From assembly GCA_045805065.1 (NCBI GenBank), contig JBJMMA010000007.1, positions 1 to 21,084 of the forward strand: a stretch of DNA of 21,084 nucleotides. The letters run 5' to 3'. The position numbers and the translations under genes are program-made. Shown here piece by piece: positions 8,885 to 17,033 of this stretch (position 1 is its first letter; each line of letters opens with the position of its first letter). Source of the stretch: Bdellovibrionia bacterium (GTDB lineage Bacteria > Bdellovibrionota > UBA1018). The notes under the pieces were generated by a model. It searched no databases and was not told where the DNA came from. It saw only the letters and a list, made by a program, of their open reading frames with translations.

Positions 8885-11884
8885 TCACGGCGAAGGCTCT
8901 GAGGCAAGGTTCTTTTTCAACATGTTATAAATACAGCCGCGAATGGAGAATGCGGGCCCCTTGCCCTGTTCTGCCCGCTCTATTCCCGTTTTCAATCTCT
9001 GATAAGTCGGAACCAACCCTCCAGTCAGTTTTCTTAACTCAGGATGGTCCTTCCAGTGGGGCAAAGAGAAAACCTCGTTATCGATGCGCTTTACGGATTC
9101 CAAAACATTTTCACTTCCGTCCGATTCGATTGCTTTGATCAACAAAGGAATGAACTCAGGGTGATTTTTTGCGTGAGGCTGAGATAAAGTGTAATGAGCG
9201 ACCAGGCTCCAAAGACCTCGCTTGCTCCAAGTACCTCGCTTCTTCAGCACTTTTTCAATGAACTCAGGCTGATCCATCCACTGAGGTTCGGAAAGAATCT
9301 GGTGCCCAAATAGGTCATATAAGCTCCAATTCCCTGTACTTGGAGAGCGATAAAGGGAATTAAACACCTCTGCATCGTCCAAGACCATGAATGCCCAATC
9401 CTGACGATAGTTCCAATGAGGTTGAGTTAGAACATATTGCGTGATCGCAAGACTGGCCGCCCCTTTTTTAATTAATGACTCGACGAACTCTGGATGATCC
9501 TTCCAATGCGGCTGAGCCAAAACATATTTGGCAATTGCGGGAGAGAGATTGTTGCGGAAGTCCCAAGACTCCAGTTTATCAATCAGTTTGCTCACAAATT
9601 CAGGATGATCCTTCCAATGAGGCTTAGAAAGAGCAAAGCGCGCGATTTCCTCATCCGCGCTCCCTCTTTTTAGGAGAGTCTCCACCCACTCGGGATGGTC
9701 TTTGGAAAACGGTTGGGACAAAACATATGCAGCGATATATGGATCGACTGTTCCCTTTTTTAAAAGGCTTTCCACAATGAAACGGGACTGAGGAGTCTCA
9801 TGAGGCTGGCCAATCACACCTCCAAAGAGAGTCCTTCTTACGTTGACGTCAACACCCTCCTTTGCGGCTAACTCAATGACCCACTCCGGATGATCTTTCC
9901 AATGCGGTTGAGTCAAAACATACTTCGCAAGCTCCACGTCCGCATTGCCCTCGTTCAAAATGGTCCTGACCCATTCGGGATGCTCTTTTGTATCAGGTTG
10001 AGATAAAATCCGCTTTGCAATATCAGGATGGAGTTGTGAATATCGTATCGCGCTTCGAATCCAATCCGGATGCTTCTGAATAATGGGATGACTCACAATA
10101 TAGCGGGCCACCCGCTCATCACGCTGCTGATCCCTGACGAACCTAGCCCCCCATTCTTCGACCCACTCGTCCTGTTTCAACCAATGCGGTAAGCTCAGAA
10201 TTCGCTCTGCGATCCAGCCGTCCTCAATTCCCTTGCTCCTTAAAAGATGAATCATGTCTGGATAGTTTTCAGACCCAGGCAAGGCGCTCCACTCGGCTAG
10301 TAACCGAGAACTCATGATGTCGACACCTGAAGCATTTTTGATTTTAGTTTGAACGACTTCAAAGATCTCATTCAACTGCCGCTCATCCAAGGCCAGCATC
10401 TTATTCCCGATCCGCCTTTTGAATTTTTCGATGATGCCCCGATCACCGAACCCAAACCCAAAGCTATCGCCAGCCAGAATTCGGAAGTATTCGACCGGGC
10501 CAATGCTTAGACTTTCAGGAATGACTCTCAAAGCAGCTTTGTTTTTGACAACAACGTAATCATGCTCCTTGAGATAATCAAAATCAGCGCCCTGTCGTGC
10601 ATCAGGATCCAAGTGAAAGCGGATCGTCAAACCCGTGCCTCGAGCTCCTTCTCGACCTACGCGGGCGTAAAAACCGTTTCCATAAGCAGCCACTTCTCCC
10701 GGATTATTTTTCCGAGATATTAAGACATTGGGGTCACCCGTATGAGCTTTGGTGATACTCTCATAAGCTAAAAAGTTGTTGGTCTCATGTGCGACAACGT
10801 CAATCCCAAGCTCTTGAGCAGTCTTTCTAAATCCTTTTCCAAGAGGCTTGGTTCGTAGAGGTTCTTTGTTCATCCACCAGGCTAAGGAATCCGTGTCGCC
10901 TGCATTGTCATTGATCCGGATGAGCTTCTGTCTCAAACCCAAGCCTTCGAGCGTATCCCAGGCGTATTCGATATTAACGGCATTCTGAATCAGCTTCTTT
11001 CCATTCTTTTCGATCCAGTTTGCGACATATGAGTTTTTAGTGCCTTTTTGGGGGTTAAAACCATCAATCACTTTCTTAAGATGCTTAAGATCTTCGGGCC
11101 TAATCTCCAGCTCGTACTGAAAAGCCTTGGTGAGAAATCGGATCACAGAAAGGATCGGAGGATTTCTGCCCTCTTTGGCAAACTTGGTCGATCCATGACT
11201 TGGAGAAAAATAGTAGTGAAGCATTCCATCGTGAACGTCTTTCAGGAAGAAAGGCTCTTTGGAATTCCAGTCCCTCACATCTCTGACAACGGACTCCCCT
11301 GCTTGTGGCTTTGTGATTTCGATGAGACCTGTGGAGTTTGAGTCGGAATGTTGGTTGAGAAAGTCTGGGTTTTTCAGAATTGCAAGCTTATCGCCCATGT
11401 CTTGCGTAAGGAGTCTCACTTCCCACGCGGTCTTTGAGCCTTGAAGGTGCGGATACTTTTCCTGCAGCGCCGTTTGAAGTTTTTGCGCTTGATCAGCGTT
11501 TCCATCAATCACGATGTCCAAGTCTTGAGTGGAGCGATAGATATTGGTGTAGTCGTAATCAAAACGATCTTGTTGAAAACGCGTATCGCCCTTCTCGCGC
11601 TGCATGTCCCATTTTACGTAATGCGCATAGCCCGCAGCCGTCCCCCCAAAGAGCCAGGCTCGCACTCCAAGCTTTGCAGCCTCTTGCTCGATAAATCGAA
11701 ACTCTTCGACTCGCTTGAGTCGATCTGCGATCCCTTGCTCAAGATCTTGAAGAGAAGGAGTTTGGGTCGAATGGGCTATTTCAGACGTTGCCGCAAGCGA
11801 CAGCTGTGGCATCCAACATGCCTGCGACGTAGCAAGCAGCATCATCGAAACAATCATCTGAAATAGACTCAACCGATTTCGCAT
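8885..11884 (-). CDS. Putative secreted NTase-like + ART-like + helical-repeat protein (paralogue A, 999 aa)
   Basis: Hydrophobic N-terminus ending SLA-A. WLFGG...DLD (D121/D123)...WEV, then AHET (H366)...YGNGFY (Y406)...DYVVV, ~13 repeats, and the tail FSIRGCIYNML. Confidence 0.85.
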   Translation of the reverse strand: MRNRLSLFQMIVSMMLLATSQACWMPQLSLAATSEIAHSTQTPSLQDLEQGIADRLKRVEEFRFIEQEAAKLGVRAWLFGGTAAGYAHYVKWDMQREKGDTRFQQDRFDYDYTNIYRSTQDLDIVIDGNADQAQKLQTALQEKYPHLQGSKTAWEVRLLTQDMGDKLAILKNPDFLNQHSDSNSTGLIEITKPQAGESVVRDVRDWNSKEPFFLKDVHDGMLHYYFSPSHGSTKFAKEGRNPPILSVIRFLTKAFQYELEIRPEDLKHLKKVIDGFNPQKGTKNSYVANWIEKNGKKLIQNAVNIEYAWDTLEGLGLRQKLIRINDNAGDTDSLAWWMNKEPLRTKPLGKGFRKTAQELGIDVVAHETNNFLAYESITKAHTGDPNVLISRKNNPGEVAAYGNGFYARVGREGARGTGLTIRFHLDPDARQGADFDYLKEHDYVVVKNKAALRVIPESLSIGPVEYFRILAGDSFGFGFGDRGIIEKFKRRIGNKMLALDERQLNEIFEVVQTKIKNASGVDIMSSRLLAEWSALPGSENYPDMIHLLRSKGIEDGWIAERILSLPHWLKQDEWVEEWGARFVRDQQRDERVARYIVSHPIIQKHPDWIRSAIRYSQLHPDIAKRILSQPDTKEHPEWVRTILNEGNADVELAKYVLTQPHWKDHPEWVIELAAKEGVDVNVRRTLFGGVIGQPHETPQSRFIVESLLKKGTVDPYIAAYVLSQPFSKDHPEWVETLLKRGSADEEIARFALSKPHWKDHPEFVSKLIDKLESWDFRNNLSPAIAKYVLAQPHWKDHPEFVESLIKKGAASLAITQYVLTQPHWNYRQDWAFMVLDDAEVFNSLYRSPSTGNWSLYDLFGHQILSEPQWMDQPEFIEKVLKKRGTWSKRGLWSLVAHYTLSQPHAKNHPEFIPLLIKAIESDGSENVLESVKRIDNEVFSLPHWKDHPELRKLTGGLVPTYQRLKTGIERAEQGKGPAFSIRGCIYNMLKKNLASEPSP
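9035..10291 (-). repeat. ~13 protein-level repeats, ~30-aa core, paralogue A
   Basis: For example LSQPDTKEHPEWVRTILNEGNADVELAKYV, LSQPFSKDHPEWVETLLKRGSADEEIARFA and LAQPHWKDHPEFVESLIKKGAASLAITQYV. Confidence 0.9.
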
Positions 11885-11894
11885 TCCTGAGCCT

Positions 11895-13901
11895 CTATGG
11901 TTTTACGTCCATTTGTTGAAGGTGCCCGATCATACATGGCCCAGCACCTAAAGTGCTACTCAAAGTCTCGCCACGTGCGAAGGCTTGGGCTAGTTTTTCT
12001 GCCGTAGGCTTTTCTCCGCCAGTCAGCTTGAGAAGCGAAGGATGCTCTTTCCAATGAGCCTTGGAAAGCGCAAGGGCTTGGACATAATACTGCGAGTTTC
12101 CGGCCTTGTTTTTGAGAATGTACTCAATCAGCTCGGGATGGACCTTCCATTCGGGTCTATTGAGAACGCTCGTTATCACTGCTTGAACGTCGTGATCTCC
12201 GGGACTCTTGTCCAAAATCGCTTTTACGATCTCGGGATGATCCAATGAGATCGGCATATCAAACCATTCGGAAAGAACGGGGATCATGCCCGTTTTCTTG
12301 CTCCACATATCGCCGACTTCAATGGAAACCGATGGCGCGCGATCAACGCTTTCTTTGATCGTGTTTAAAATCTTGTCCACCTGATCTTTTGACCAGGTCT
12401 TGGATTTAGCAGCGATCTTTCTCTTCACTTTATCAAGCATGCTGCGAGTGCCATTATCTAGCTTACGCTGATGCCGAGCAAGAGACTGAAAGTACTCAAC
12501 AGGATCGCCGTTGACACTCTCTGGGATCACGTGGATGGCGGCCTTGTTGTGGATAATCACGTAGTTTTTTTCAAGAACTCGGGTAAAGTCCTCGCCTTCG
12601 CGAGCGTTGGGATCTAAGCGAAACTTGATATTCAGTCCCCCGTTTCGATCGCCCTGTTCGCCGACTTTGGTGTAGAAACCTTCGCCGTATTTCGCAGCTT
12701 CGTCCACGGCACTATCGCGGGAACTCAGAACGTTTGCATCACCCATCAATGAGCTTGTGATGATTTCATAAGCCTGGATGCTATTCGTCTCATGAGCGAG
12801 GGTATCCAGACCAAGCTCTCGCGCTGTTTTTCCGGTCCCTTTGCCAACAGGTTTCGCGCGAAGTGGTTCTTTAGTTAACCACCAAGCCAAAGATTCGGGT
12901 TGGTACACATTGCCGGGGATGGCTTGAAGCTTTTTCTTGAGCCCAAGTTTTTCCAAAGTATCCGACACCAACTCGATATTGGTTGCGTGCTGAAAGAGCT
13001 TCCGTCCATTGTATTCCACCGCATGAGAGGCGTACTGTGTTTGAAGATCTTTCGCGGGATTGAACTCTTCGACTACTTTTTTGATTTGAGCAAGATCCTG
13101 GGGCGGGATCTGCAGATCATATTGAAAGGCCTTAGTCAGATAACGGATGACCGATAAGATCGGCGGGTTTCGTCCATCTTTTGCAAACTGTGTTGTCGAG
13201 TGAAGCGGAGAAAAATAATAGTGAACGACGCCATCATGGACATCTTTTAAGAAAGCAGGTTCTTTCGCGTTCCATTCTCGAACATCCCTGACAACGCCTT
13301 CGCCTGCTTTTGACTTCGTAATTTCAATCATGCCGACGGAGCTTGAATCCGTGTGCTGATTCATGAAATCAGGGTTATTTAAAATAGCGAATTTCTCTCC
13401 CTTGTTTTGGGCGAGAAGGCGCACCTCCCATGCACTCTTATCACCTTGGCGATGTGGATATTTCAGTTCGAGCATGCGTTGCAGCTGTTCTGCCTGCTCG
13501 GGACTGCCATCAATCACAACGTCCAAGTCTTGCGTAGAGCGATAAATGCTTGTGTAGTCGTAATCAAAACGGCCTTTTTGAATGCGCGAATCGCCACTTT
13601 CACGCTGCATATCCCATTTCACATAATGCGCGTAGGCTGAGGCAGTACCACCAAAGAGCCAGGCTCGCACGCCAAGCTTTGCAGCCTCTTGTTCAATAAA
13701 ACGAAACTCTTCGACTCGCTTGAGTCGATCCGAAATTCCATGCTCAAGCTCTTGAAGCGTTGATGCTTTGATAGATTGAGTATTTACCGTACTGCCAGAG
13801 GGCGTAGCCCATGCACGGTTTGAAATCCCTGCGGCCTGGAACACTACTGTAAGCGCGATCCAAGCGGTCACTTGAAAAACGACATGAAATGGCGTCTTCA
13901 T
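11895..13901 (-). CDS. Putative secreted NTase-like + ART-like protein (paralogue B, 668 aa, 3 repeats)
   Basis: Signal peptide ending AWA-T. WLFGG...DLDVVID, AHET...YGEGFY...NYVII, and the tail GAGPCMIGHL. The start overlaps the stop of paralogue C (ATGA). Confidence 0.85.
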   Translation of the reverse strand: MKTPFHVVFQVTAWIALTVVFQAAGISNRAWATPSGSTVNTQSIKASTLQELEHGISDRLKRVEEFRFIEQEAAKLGVRAWLFGGTASAYAHYVKWDMQRESGDSRIQKGRFDYDYTSIYRSTQDLDVVIDGSPEQAEQLQRMLELKYPHRQGDKSAWEVRLLAQNKGEKFAILNNPDFMNQHTDSSSVGMIEITKSKAGEGVVRDVREWNAKEPAFLKDVHDGVVHYYFSPLHSTTQFAKDGRNPPILSVIRYLTKAFQYDLQIPPQDLAQIKKVVEEFNPAKDLQTQYASHAVEYNGRKLFQHATNIELVSDTLEKLGLKKKLQAIPGNVYQPESLAWWLTKEPLRAKPVGKGTGKTARELGLDTLAHETNSIQAYEIITSSLMGDANVLSSRDSAVDEAAKYGEGFYTKVGEQGDRNGGLNIKFRLDPNAREGEDFTRVLEKNYVIIHNKAAIHVIPESVNGDPVEYFQSLARHQRKLDNGTRSMLDKVKRKIAAKSKTWSKDQVDKILNTIKESVDRAPSVSIEVGDMWSKKTGMIPVLSEWFDMPISLDHPEIVKAILDKSPGDHDVQAVITSVLNRPEWKVHPELIEYILKNKAGNSQYYVQALALSKAHWKEHPSLLKLTGGEKPTAEKLAQAFARGETLSSTLGAGPCMIGHLQQMDVKP

Positions 13902-16753
13902 TCGTTTGCCTCCACAGCCAGCCGTTTATTGAGCATGTTGTAGATACAACCACGAATCGAGAAAGCAGGCCCCCTGCCTTGCTCCGCGCGCTTCATCCCT
14001 ACTTTCAGATTTTTATAAGTGGGCGGAAGCCCTCCCGTTAGCCGTCGAAGCTCGGGATGATCCATCCAGTGAGGTTGAGAAAGAACCTTCTTATTGAAGT
14101 ACTCAATCTGGTCGCTATCAAGGGGGCGTTTCATGAGCTGGATGACAAACTCTGAATGATCCTTCCATTGCGGAAGAGAAACCAGGTCCATGCCAGACCG
14201 GCCCATTGACCTATTGAGGATAATTTCAACGAACTCGGGGTGATCTTTCCAAAGCGGTTTTGAAAGTACATCGGCCGCGACTAGATCCATTACGTGAGTG
14301 GTTTTTACGAACCGCTCAAGGAGCTCGGGATGTGCGGCCCATTGCTTCTGCGAAAAAACATTCCTGATCAGCTGAACATCAACTTTCCAATTTCGTTTAT
14401 TCATCAGGCTTTTGATAAACTCAGGATGCTCTATCCAATGGGGTTGAGATAAAACTACTGTTCCCAAAACATCAGCAGCGCGATCAACCTCAGCTCCATA
14501 AAGCTCCGGATGCGTGATCACATCCATCACCAAACGCTCCATTACCGGCCACTGAGTTTTCCAGTGAGGCATGGAAAACACGTATTTGATCAAACGCATC
14601 CGCGCATTAAAGTCTCTTATCGAAAACCGCTCCAACCATTCCGGATGATTCGCTGACTCAGGTTGCGTCAGAATGCTTGTCATGATCGTTTCGTCAACCT
14701 TCCCACGCGCCATCAGAAGATCTATCCACTCGGGATGTGCCTTTATAGTGTCAGGCTGAACGAGAATGAATCTGCTGATCTCCTCATCTGCCGTTCCTCT
14801 TTTCAAAAGGTCATCAACCCAGCCTGGTCGGTCCTTCCAATGAGGCTGAGAGAGAACGTCTCGTGCGAGAACTCTATCGATGTCTCCATGACCGAGTAAA
14901 AGATCCACCCACTCTGGATGTGCTTTAGCTTCCGGTTTTGAAAGAACACGGGATGCGATCGCAACACGAACGTCTTTGACTTTTCTATGGAGAAGCTCAG
15001 AGATCCATCGCGACCATTGCGGAAGCTCGAGCCAGCGCGATTGACTAAGTACTGATTCCACCAGGAAAGAATCCGCAGTACCATGCTTAACGACCCAGTC
15101 TACGATCTCAGGCCATCGAGAAGACTGAGGCGAATCAAACCAAGCCTTTAAAACAGCGGAACGCTTTAAATCTTGCGAGTTAATGATTTCGTTTTTGACG
15201 ATTTTTAATATTTCTTGAATCTCACTTTCACTCGCGGCCGAAAGCTTGGCGCCGATTCGTCGCTTTAATTTTTCTAGAATCCCAAGATCGCTGTGATCAA
15301 TGGCCGCTTGATCCTGTGCAAGCATTTCAAAATACTCGACTGGCCCGACATTCAGACTTTCAGGAATGACCTTGAGCGCGGCTTTATTTCGGACAATGAT
15401 AAAATTAGCGTCACTTTCTCTGATAAAATCGACGTTCTCTCGAGCCTCCGGATTCAAATGAAAGCGGATGGTCAGTCCCGTGCCGCGCGCCCCTTCCTTT
15501 CCTATCTTTGTGTAAAAACCATTGCCATAGTGTGCCGCCTCGCCAACCGCGTCATTACGCGAGATCAAAACATTGGGATCACCAGTATGAGCACGCGTGA
15601 TGCTCTCATAAGCCAAAAAACTGTTTGTCTCGTGAGCAACAATATCGAGGCCAAGCTCTCTGGCAGTCTTTCCAAAACCTTTTGCTAACGCTCGGGTCCG
15701 CAAAGGCTCTTTGTTCATCCACCAAGCCAAGGTCTCGACTGTGTTGGGATCGTCTTTGATCGCGATCAGCTTTTTTCGAAGGCCGAGCTCTTCAAGCGTG
15801 TCCCAGGCATATTCAATATTGACCGCGTTCTGGATGAGCTTCTTTCCATTCTTTTCGATCCAATTCGATACATAAGAGTTTTCCGTGTCTTTCTTTGGAT
15901 CGAACTCCGCGATCACTTTTTTTATGCTCTTAAGTTCCTCAGGCCTGACCTCGAGTTCGTATTGGAAAGCCTTGGTGAGATAACGGATTACGGACAGTAT
16001 CGGAGGATTACGACCTTCTTTAGCGAACTTGGTCGATTTATGATTTGAAGAAAAGTAATAGTGAAGCTTTCCTTCGTGTACGTCTTTAAGAAAGAATGGC
16101 TCTCTCGAGTTCCAGTCTCTGACGTCTCGTACGACAGAATCCCCTGCTTTTGGCTTTGTAATTTCAATCAGCCCTGTGGAATTTGAGTCGGTATGCTGAT
16201 TGAGAAAATCCGGGTTATTTAAGATCGCAAGCTTATCGCCCATGTCTTGAGTGAGCAGACGCACTTCCCAGGCAGTCTTGGAGCCCTGCAGATGCGGATA
16301 TCTTTCTTGGAGCGTCGCCTGGAGCTTTTGTGCCTGGGACGCATCACCATCAATGACGATATCGAGATCTTGCGTGGAGCGATAGATATTGGTGTAGTCG
16401 TAATCAAAGCGATCCTTCTGAAACCTTGGATCACCCTTCTCACGCTGCATGTCCCACTTTACGTAATGGGCATAGCCTGCAGCTGTTCCACCAAAGAGCC
16501 AGGCTCGCACGCCAAGCTTTGCGGCCTCCTGCTCAATGAAGCGAAACTCGTCGACTCTTTTCAGCCGATCCGCGATTCCATGTTCAAACTCTTGAAGCGT
16601 CGGAGATTTGACAGTTTGAGAGGCTGTATCTTTTTCAAATGGCGCAGCAAAGGTCGCACAAGGCACCCAAAGTGCCTGCGGCGCCACCAAAAGCGCAATC
16701 AAAACAACGGCGTGAGAAATACCCCCCAAACGAGTCCTCATCCATGGACTCAT
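13898..16753 (-). CDS. Putative secreted NTase-like + ART-like + helical-repeat protein (paralogue C, 951 aa)
   Basis: Signal peptide ending TFA-A. WLFGG...DLDIVID, AHET...YGNGFY...NFIIV, ~12 repeats, and the tail FSIRGCIYNML. The start could be ATG 16753 or ATG 16741. Confidence 0.85.
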   Translation of the reverse strand: MSPWMRTRLGGISHAVVLIALLVAPQALWVPCATFAAPFEKDTASQTVKSPTLQEFEHGIADRLKRVDEFRFIEQEAAKLGVRAWLFGGTAAGYAHYVKWDMQREKGDPRFQKDRFDYDYTNIYRSTQDLDIVIDGDASQAQKLQATLQERYPHLQGSKTAWEVRLLTQDMGDKLAILNNPDFLNQHTDSNSTGLIEITKPKAGDSVVRDVRDWNSREPFFLKDVHEGKLHYYFSSNHKSTKFAKEGRNPPILSVIRYLTKAFQYELEVRPEELKSIKKVIAEFDPKKDTENSYVSNWIEKNGKKLIQNAVNIEYAWDTLEELGLRKKLIAIKDDPNTVETLAWWMNKEPLRTRALAKGFGKTARELGLDIVAHETNSFLAYESITRAHTGDPNVLISRNDAVGEAAHYGNGFYTKIGKEGARGTGLTIRFHLNPEARENVDFIRESDANFIIVRNKAALKVIPESLNVGPVEYFEMLAQDQAAIDHSDLGILEKLKRRIGAKLSAASESEIQEILKIVKNEIINSQDLKRSAVLKAWFDSPQSSRWPEIVDWVVKHGTADSFLVESVLSQSRWLELPQWSRWISELLHRKVKDVRVAIASRVLSKPEAKAHPEWVDLLLGHGDIDRVLARDVLSQPHWKDRPGWVDDLLKRGTADEEISRFILVQPDTIKAHPEWIDLLMARGKVDETIMTSILTQPESANHPEWLERFSIRDFNARMRLIKYVFSMPHWKTQWPVMERLVMDVITHPELYGAEVDRAADVLGTVVLSQPHWIEHPEFIKSLMNKRNWKVDVQLIRNVFSQKQWAAHPELLERFVKTTHVMDLVAADVLSKPLWKDHPEFVEIILNRSMGRSGMDLVSLPQWKDHSEFVIQLMKRPLDSDQIEYFNKKVLSQPHWMDHPELRRLTGGLPPTYKNLKVGMKRAEQGRGPAFSIRGCIYNMLNKRLAVEANE
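14048..15142 (-). repeat. ~12 protein-level repeats, ~30-aa core, paralogue C
   Basis: For example LSKPEAKAHPEWVDLLLGHGDIDRVLARDV and LSQPHWKDRPGWVDDLLKRGTADEEISRFI. Confidence 0.9.
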
Positions 16754-16783
16754 CGGAGCTTTTTAGAAAAAGAATTACTGTGG

Positions 16784-16806
16784 AACCGGTTAAAATTTAA
16801 CCGGTT
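16784..16806. repeat. Perfect inverted repeat (11-1-11), possible operator or RNA hairpin
   Basis: AACCGGTTAAA-A-TTTAACCGGTT. It overlaps the csbD stop codon and lies 30 nt upstream of paralogue C. Confidence 0.8.
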
Positions 16807-17033
16807 TTCTTAAACTTATCTTTGATGTCCTCAGTAACGTCTTCGGTCTTATCTTTTACGTCACCCATCAAGCCTTCGCCCTTACCTTTTAGGTTTTGAG
16901 TCTGGCCTTCTGTTTTCATATTCTCGGCATTTTTATCTTCAGATCGATGTTCAGACATATCGGCCATTTTTTCTTTAGCCTTGCCGACCGTTTCATCGAA
17001 TTTGCCTTTGAGCTTGTCTGTAAAACCACTCAT
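16797..17033 (-). CDS. csbD: CsbD-like general stress protein (78 aa)
   Basis: DKLKGKFDETVGKAKE...EGQTQNLKGK...GDVKD. An AGGAGG RBS at 17046-17041 precedes ATG 17033. Confidence 0.85.
   Translation of the reverse strand: MSGFTDKLKGKFDETVGKAKEKMADMSEHRSEDKNAENMKTEGQTQNLKGKGEGLMGDVKDKTEDVTEDIKDKFKKTG

Follow-up and report, generated by a model that had tools for sequence, protein, structure and literature searches.

A predicted ADP-ribosyltransferase-fold domain joined to a CCA-adding-enzyme-like nucleotidyltransferase in an expanded family of Bdellovibrionota proteins

Introduction

ADP-ribosyltransferase (ART) domains are a major currency of conflict between organisms, and work on RNA and DNA ends that carry ADP-ribose is recent, the field being still small. 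Within the ART superfamily, the H-Y-E clade is defined by the positions of motifs on an N-terminal, a central and a C-terminal strand (PMC3482391), and Tpt1 and RES enzymes are described, in a general statement, as using phosphate as the attacking acceptor (PMC9503650). The phage protein Gad2 (Gabija anti-defence 2; PF26128) was predicted by its authors to contain a nucleotidyltransferase (NTase) domain, and the available portion of their report mentions no ART-like part (bioRxiv 10.1101/2023.05.01.538930). Here we describe three tandem paralogs, genes A, B and C, that lie in a 21,084-nucleotide stretch of DNA (the window) from a Bdellovibrionia bacterium (assembly GCA_045805065.1, contig JBJMMA010000007.1) and that each place a small, highly conserved domain directly after an NTase. 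We propose, tentatively and on the strength of structural models, that this second domain is a minimal, sequence-cryptic ART-fold domain of an H-Y-x type, belonging to the branch that holds PARPs, diphtheria toxin and Tpt1, and that it packs against an NTase resembling class II CCA-adding enzymes and may carry out the transfer of single ADP-ribose units. Full-text literature searches, together with main-text passages of two surveys that compare ART and toxin domains across genomes (PMC9503650 and PMC3482391), gave no description of this family or of any fusion between a CCA-type NTase and an ART.

Results

The open reading frames of the window and their translations place genes A, B and C together on the minus strand, with 10 bases between genes A and B and an overlap of 4 bases between genes B and C. 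The three proteins share a module of approximately 430 residues (amino acid residues (aa) ~45-480 of gene A), and its features in the window are as follows.

8885-11884, minus strand: gene A, 999 aa, encoding a leader, the NTase, the ART-like domain, ~10 helical 30-aa repeats and a conserved tail
10868-11752, minus strand: class II NTase-like head and neck of gene A (aa 45-339)
11636-11650, minus strand: NTase motif FGGTA of gene A
11501-11527, minus strand: NTase motif QDLDIVIDG of gene A
10508-10867, minus strand: predicted ART-fold domain of gene A (aa 340-459), placed by models, fold searches, column statistics and motif coordinates, with H366-E-T368 on strand 1, S390-R391, E397, G404-F-Y406 on the central strand, D434-F435, the variable D442, and N448
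10781-10792, minus strand: motif AHET of gene A (aa 365-368)
10712-10723, minus strand: motif LISR of gene A
10667-10681, minus strand: motif GNGFY of gene A (aa 402-406)
10541-10561, minus strand: motif DYVVVKN of gene A (aa 442-448)
11895-13901, minus strand: gene B, 668 aa, a paralog with 65% identity to gene A across the module
12513-12872, minus strand: predicted ART-fold domain of gene B
12786-12797, minus strand: motif AHET of gene B
12672-12686, minus strand: motif GEGFY of gene B
12546-12566, minus strand: motif NYVIIHN of gene B
13898-16753, minus strand: gene C, 951 aa, a paralog with 80% identity to gene A across the module
15353-15712, minus strand: predicted ART-fold domain of gene C
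15626-15637, minus strand: motif AHET of gene C
15512-15526, minus strand: motif GNGFY of gene C
15386-15406, minus strand: motif NFIIVRN of gene C

The original prediction, made from the sequence of the window, held that a PARP/diphtheria-toxin-clade ART domain follows the NTase in each gene and is marked by the motifs AHET..AYExIT, G[NE]GFY and [DN][YF]hhhxN. All three motifs are indeed present in genes A, B and C within the intervals it gave, and its numbering of H366 and Y406 in gene A is correct. As to function, it suggested that the domain may be a mono-ART, an NADase or an NAD+ sensor and might modify what the NTase makes.

Structural models argue strongly for an ART-type fold. We modelled the module with AlphaFold2 using a 50-sequence alignment, and modelled aa 340-480 of gene A separately; the model of the module had a mean predicted local distance difference test (pLDDT) score of 92.7 and a predicted template modelling (pTM) score of 0.91, and that of the domain alone had scores of 89.0 and 0.81, respectively. 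When the domain model was compared with 48,161 unrelated representative structures, and the best 50 rows were judged, at least 34 of these proved to be ARTs by title, including PARPs, tankyrases, Tpt1 from mouse, yeast and Runella, ParT, pertussis toxin, DarT, SpvB, cholix toxin, exotoxin A, TccC3 and Arr. A further 14 of the 50 we take to be ART- or RES-type enzymes that use nicotinamide adenine dinucleotide (NAD+), namely Scabin, CARDS, MbcT, NatT, Tne2, RES, TreX, RhsP2, VPA0770, TreTu, 6b, Tse2, SAIP and 9ld3; the remaining two, 9k3a_B and 2aua_B, could not be placed. ART-superfamily structures made up nearly all of the matches of the domain-only and the whole-module models alike. Whereas a fold that lacked the split beta-sheet core of the ARTs would have spoken against the original prediction, both models match ART structures.

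Other searches gave weaker signals. With Foldseek, the domain model had no match in the PDB at E<=0.001, ART entries being frequent among the weak rows beside GroES, AMPK and others, and the whole model, compared with predicted viral structures, matched only proteins with tRNA NTase or PolyA-polymerase heads together with weak PARP rows. In a protein-language-model look-up, the clusters with names nearest to the domain alone were all ART families (PARP, 0.87; Tox-ART-HYD1, 0.86; Arr-ms, 0.86; Exotox-A_cataly, 0.85; ART-PolyVal, 0.85), scores that lie below the threshold of 0.9 and serve as a lead only. A rival explanation is that the domain has no kinship with ARTs, and is instead a small alpha/beta domain that resembles the ART core by convergence or through an artefact of modelling, with its His and Tyr conserved for other reasons. 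We consider this very improbable, since the list of matches drawn from the 48,161 representatives is almost purely of the ART superfamily, the two separately predicted models agree on the fold, the motif residues fall on the canonical strands, and the look-up, which is independent, likewise gives only ART families. Judged from the models, the domain is thus very likely to have a true ART fold.

The positions of the conserved motifs in the domain model are consistent with this assignment. VVAHET, which contains H27, forms the strand at residues 24-29 and is followed by a helix; GFYARV, which carries G65-F-Y67, forms the strand at residues 65-70; and YVVV forms the strand at residues 104-107, directly preceded by D103 (aa 442 of gene A). 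These are the strand positions by which the H-Y-E clade is defined (PMC3482391). Fold matches give aligned ranges and no residue pairs, and the equivalences read from them are approximate: the PARP10 alignment sets model residues 10-120 against residues 872-1003, such that counting from its ends puts H27 at ~889 and D103 at ~986, and the PARP1 alignment, which runs to model residue 120 and PARP1 residue 1004, puts D103 at ~987. These positions are close to those of what we take to be the reference residues, H887 and I987 of PARP10 and E988 of PARP1.

Column statistics from 238 non-redundant family sequences, aligned to a hidden Markov model (HMM) of the module, revealed a set of residues that are conserved in all or nearly all members. 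In motif 1, H366 is present in 238 sequences and T368 in 230; in motif 2, G404 is present in 237, F405 in 220 and Y406 in 238. Outside these motifs, S390, G410 and D434 are present in all 238, and the counts are similarly high for E375 (235), N386 (237), R391 (236), E397 (237), R422 (233), F435 (236), N448 (235) and Lys or Arg at position 449 (236). The exception is aa 442, which the original prediction had taken to be the third catalytic position, filled by Asp in gene A and by Asn in genes B and C. Across the 238 sequences this position varies (D in 116, N in 32, G in 18, E in 17, K in 13, and others), and the catalytic Glu that the H-Y-E clade carries in motif 3, at the start of the C-terminal strand, is therefore not a conserved feature of the family. 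Read from its sequences, the domain is thus of an H-Y-x type and not of an H-Y-[DN] type, like the Glu-less mono-ART PARPs or Tpt1. What survives of the predicted PARP/diphtheria-toxin-clade domain is accordingly the fold, with the His and Tyr motifs on the expected strands, and what falls is Asp or Asn as the third catalytic residue.

The ART-like domain is, by sequence comparison, constrained to the same degree as the NTase, mean pairwise identities among 236 sequences being 57.7% and 57.1%, respectively. Three divergent paralogs from the same genome, which have 34-42% identity to gene A across the ART-like domain (alignment A3), retain H-x-T, ISR, GE.A, G.GFYT, DP.A.EG.DF and the Asn. A divergent sub-family is found on contigs C139, C178 and C148 of this genome (L001:875-2980, L002:1422-3350 and L003:315-2495, respectively); it has 37-38% identity over the whole module and retains H-x-T, ISR, GFYT and DF, and its C-termini differ; L003 carries long repeats of a Cys-containing unit (...LNPSHSSVLNFCS...).

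Fold and conservation together identify the partner as class II NTase-like, with a head and neck and a GG ... DxD metal-binding motif. This motif is invariant in the family, so that the metal site is intact, and an insertion of ~40 residues separates its GG from its DxD; the Pfam family PolyA_pol (PF01743) had no match in the three proteins. The neck is followed by the ART-fold domain, which is joined rigidly to the NTase, and then by helical repeats, and the tRNA-binding body and tail domains of CCA enzymes have no counterpart. For class II CCA-adding enzymes we take the nucleotide-selecting motif to be EDxxR, in place of which the family pattern at aa ~237-256 of gene A (11200-11300) has invariant N197, R205 and K209 (RNPPILSVIRFLTK; alignment numbering). 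Compared at the level of the motif, the replacement suggests a different preference for nucleoside triphosphates (NTPs). Proteins of ~1100-1230 residues in another genome (G103, contigs C27 and C114) match the NTase only (query residues ~2-270, 26-34% identity), which shows that a different lineage of Bdellovibrionota has the NTase without the ART-like domain.

The module is flanked by a leader on one side and by repeats and a tail on the other, located as follows.

11789-11884, minus strand: leader of gene A (aa 1-32), hydrophobic and signal-peptide-like by its sequence
9047-10207, minus strand: repeat array of gene A, a variable C-terminal array of ~30-residue units; borders approximate
8888-9046, minus strand: conserved C-terminal tail of gene A (HPELRKLTGG ... 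GPAFSIRGC ...), with a single Cys 16 residues from the end
~12000-12400, minus strand: repeat array of gene B, of two-helix type, ~30 residues per unit
~14040-15200, minus strand: repeat array of gene C, of the same type and unit length

On the Kyte-Doolittle scale, the leader of gene A reaches a maximum of 2.2 in an 11-residue window, and 183 of the 207 family proteins with a leader of 20-100 aa contain an 11-residue window with a mean hydropathy of at least 1.9. By this hydropathy heuristic, the proteins are probably exported. The repeats, of which there are ~10 in gene A, 3 in gene B and 11 in gene C, have the consensus LSQPHWKDHPEWVxxLLxxGxADxxIAxYV, and compared with known families they gave only weak Ank, HEAT and Pumilio-like matches; in relatives, the C-terminal partners include HEAT, Ank, FGE-sulfatase and RasGEF domains. 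The tail follows the pattern PHWKxHPELRRL[TA]GG..PT..NL..AF.RGE....C....L, which genes B and C share over their final ~50 codons. It is conserved in most of 45 tails inspected from 241 family proteins, the one Cys lying 12-16 residues before the end. The tail may act in sorting, processing or anchoring; no known C-terminal sorting family in NCBIfam matched it.

The family is large, patchily distributed and strongly expanded where it occurs. The source genome (4.2 Mb in 262 contigs, 94% complete; the window is part of contig C7) contains 27 module matches, 21 of which span both domains. Tandem clusters of the module are also found on other contigs, with four copies on C247 and three on C188. 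In a full scan of 1.84 billion representatives, 649 clusters (at 50% identity) reached E<=0.001 and 470 reached E<=1e-30, and among 150 listed of the 649 the match nearly always covers query residues ~1-427, which indicates that the NTase and the ART-like domain travel together. The 78 loci retrieved from species-representative genomes all come from metagenome-assembled genomes, many of them sharing a genome, and are labelled Bacteriovoracaceae, Pseudobdellovibrionaceae, Bdellovibrionales, Bdellovibrionia, Bdellovibrionota or Oligoflexia, or bear the broad names 'Deltaproteobacteria' and 'Proteobacteria'. In an even sample of Bdellovibrionota the module was present at E<=1e-10 in 12 of 201 genomes, and of 13 further genomes from the source's own family just 1 had it; hence the patchiness noted above.

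Genes A to C lie among genes that look like housekeeping or envelope genes, encoding a glycerol-3-phosphate-type FAD oxidoreductase, AspRS, a PLD-like protein, an EEP-family nuclease/phosphatase, a response regulator, fumarase, a CsbD-like protein, an M74 peptidase, an APH-type kinase, a metallophosphoesterase and a BON protein. The G+C fraction is 0.47-0.49 over the paralogs (positions 9001-17000) and 0.51-0.56 in the flanks.

Discussion

We consider it possible, though we stop short of calling it probable, that the modelled domain is a catalytically active transferase that consumes NAD+. The pocket formed around the His and Tyr would bind NAD+, and phosphate or ribose contacts might come from the invariant residues S390-R391, E397 and D434. 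Given how freely the Glu site varies, the reaction, if there is one, would be a Glu-independent transfer of single ADP-ribose units, as in Glu-less mono-ART PARPs or in Tpt1 and RES enzymes. The likeliest acceptor would be the end of a nucleic acid (RNA) to which the fused NTase likewise binds or adds nucleotides, such an end being the most economical shared substrate because the partner is an RNA-3'-end enzyme. Once exported, the products of these genes would work in a compartment supplied with NAD+ and NTPs, namely the interior of a prey or host cell, and the repeat arrays would provide the choice of target.

A number of observations weigh against this proposal, the first being the outcome of sequence searches. 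Neither Pfam nor NCBIfam contained a family that matched the three full proteins at a meaningful score, and Pfam searches with 50 isolated ART-like domains gave chance-level matches only (for example, one member against DUF3990 at E 0.033). PHROGs and PADLOC gave no meaningful match to the module, and phmmer and profile searches of PDB sequences returned only ARF1, CopA, Pumilio and GyrB at E 0.1-1. Moreover, the Pfam HMMs for PARP (PF00644), Arr-ms (PF12120) and Tox-ART-HYD1 (PF15633) had no match anywhere in the genome at E<=10. To this extent the domain is aptly called cryptic, as the original prediction had called it. Kinship with KptA fared no better: the C-terminal part of the divergent paralogs (DF....NGxGVVWLNG) resembles by eye the KptA consensus KFYQADNGVWLT, but hhalign, run in local, greedy and global modes with a 31-sequence alignment started from E. 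coli kptA, gave probabilities of <=0.2% and failed to pair H-G-T with H-E-T, and we dropped the resemblance as unsupported. Tpt1/KptA itself (PF01885) was found in 0 of 151 Bdellovibrionota genomes, the source genome among them.

Further points on the same side concern the structure, the active site and the setting of the proteins. That H366, Y406 and aa 442 correspond to the His, Tyr and Glu of PARPs and diphtheria toxin is an approximate reading, taken from strand positions and from end counting against reference residue numbers, and the site expected to hold the Glu tolerates even Gly and Lys. Among the best-scoring structural neighbours, several are pseudo-PARPs that lack activity (TASOR, PARP13 and RCD1/SRO1). 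A periplasmic or extracellular protein would have no NAD+ or NTP unless it were delivered into another cell, a step that is conjectural here, and no small immunity-like gene appears in the list of open reading frames between or beside genes A to C.

One alternative is that the domain is a pseudo-ART, in which an ART fold without chemistry would bind nucleotides, NAD+/ADP-ribose or RNA ends, or play a regulatory part, in place of the body and tail with which class II CCA-adding enzymes hold tRNA, leaving the NTase as the sole catalyst. We judge this unlikely, albeit the most serious of the alternatives. Pseudo-PARPs usually lose the His, the Tyr or both, whereas H366 and Y406 are invariant here and, together with the further invariant polar residues S390, R391, E397 and D434, look like an active or ligand-binding site; in addition, the lack of a Glu is no bar to activity, since mono-ART PARPs and Tpt1 are active enzymes without it. 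The missing immunity gene bears on a different alternative, according to which the domain is an NAD+ glycohydrolase toxin that destroys the NAD+ of a target cell independently of the NTase. A toxin of this kind seems to us very unlikely, for not only is an adjacent immunity gene not found, but ART-related NAD+ glycohydrolase toxins score below PARPs, diphtheria toxin and Tpt1 in the fold search, and the obligatory, equally conserved NTase partner would be left unexplained.

If the domain is an active transferase, as we tentatively favour, what it looks and would work most like are the catalytic domains of the mono-ART PARPs (PARP10/14/15/12/16 type) and Tpt1. It differs from the former in having no sequence kinship detectable with PF00644, a core of ~120 aa instead of ~190, and additional invariant S-R, E and D-F motifs, and in being bacterial, preceded by a leader and fused to an NTase. 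Tpt1 has an N-terminal lobe that carries an Arg-His-Arg-Arg catalytic tetrad, whereas the corresponding upstream region here folds as the head and neck of a CCA-enzyme NTase. Unlike the catalytic domains of diphtheria toxin and exotoxin A, the domain has no conserved catalytic Glu, it is accompanied by no translocation or receptor domains, and nothing points to eEF2 as its target. Bacterial ARTs of the H-Y-D type (Tox-ART-HYD1/2 and Arr) are set apart by the Asp, present in only 116 of 238 members here, and by the absence of PF15633 and PF12120 matches. Compared with class II CCA- and A-adding enzymes and poly(A) polymerase I, these proteins have a leader, and they carry the ART-fold domain and helical repeats where those enzymes have a body and tail. 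Gad2 is the nearest cluster to the whole module in the embedding look-up, at 0.88, again below the threshold of 0.9, and the PF26128 HMM had no match to the three proteins. Because the curated ART profiles we tried all failed to match and the catalytic Glu is not conserved, we would class the domain, on the evidence of the models, as founding a new and divergent ART-superfamily family that stands apart from the PARP, diphtheria toxin, Arr and Tpt1 families.

A more speculative extension, which we put forward as an unlikely one, is that the proteins form a new class of effectors, exported by predatory or host-associated Bdellovibrionota, whose two enzymes work on one RNA end: the CCA-enzyme-like NTase would extend this end, and the Glu-less, Tpt1/PARP10-like ART would place ADP-ribose on its terminal phosphate or ribose as a cap or block. 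The dozens of paralogs per genome would differ in their 30-residue repeats, which would choose the target.

An ART-fold family that is an orphan by sequence would extend the superfamily by one new branch, which is linked to a tRNA-nucleotidyltransferase-like enzyme, equipped with a probable export leader and expanded to over 20 copies in single genomes of a predatory phylum. The assignment would also give a label that bears on function to a family which comprises 649 clusters or more (at 50% identity) and has no annotation at present. If the domain is active, it would be a candidate for a new modification of nucleic-acid ends used in predation; if it is inactive, it would be a bacterial pseudo-ART that has replaced the tRNA-binding body of a CCA-type enzyme.

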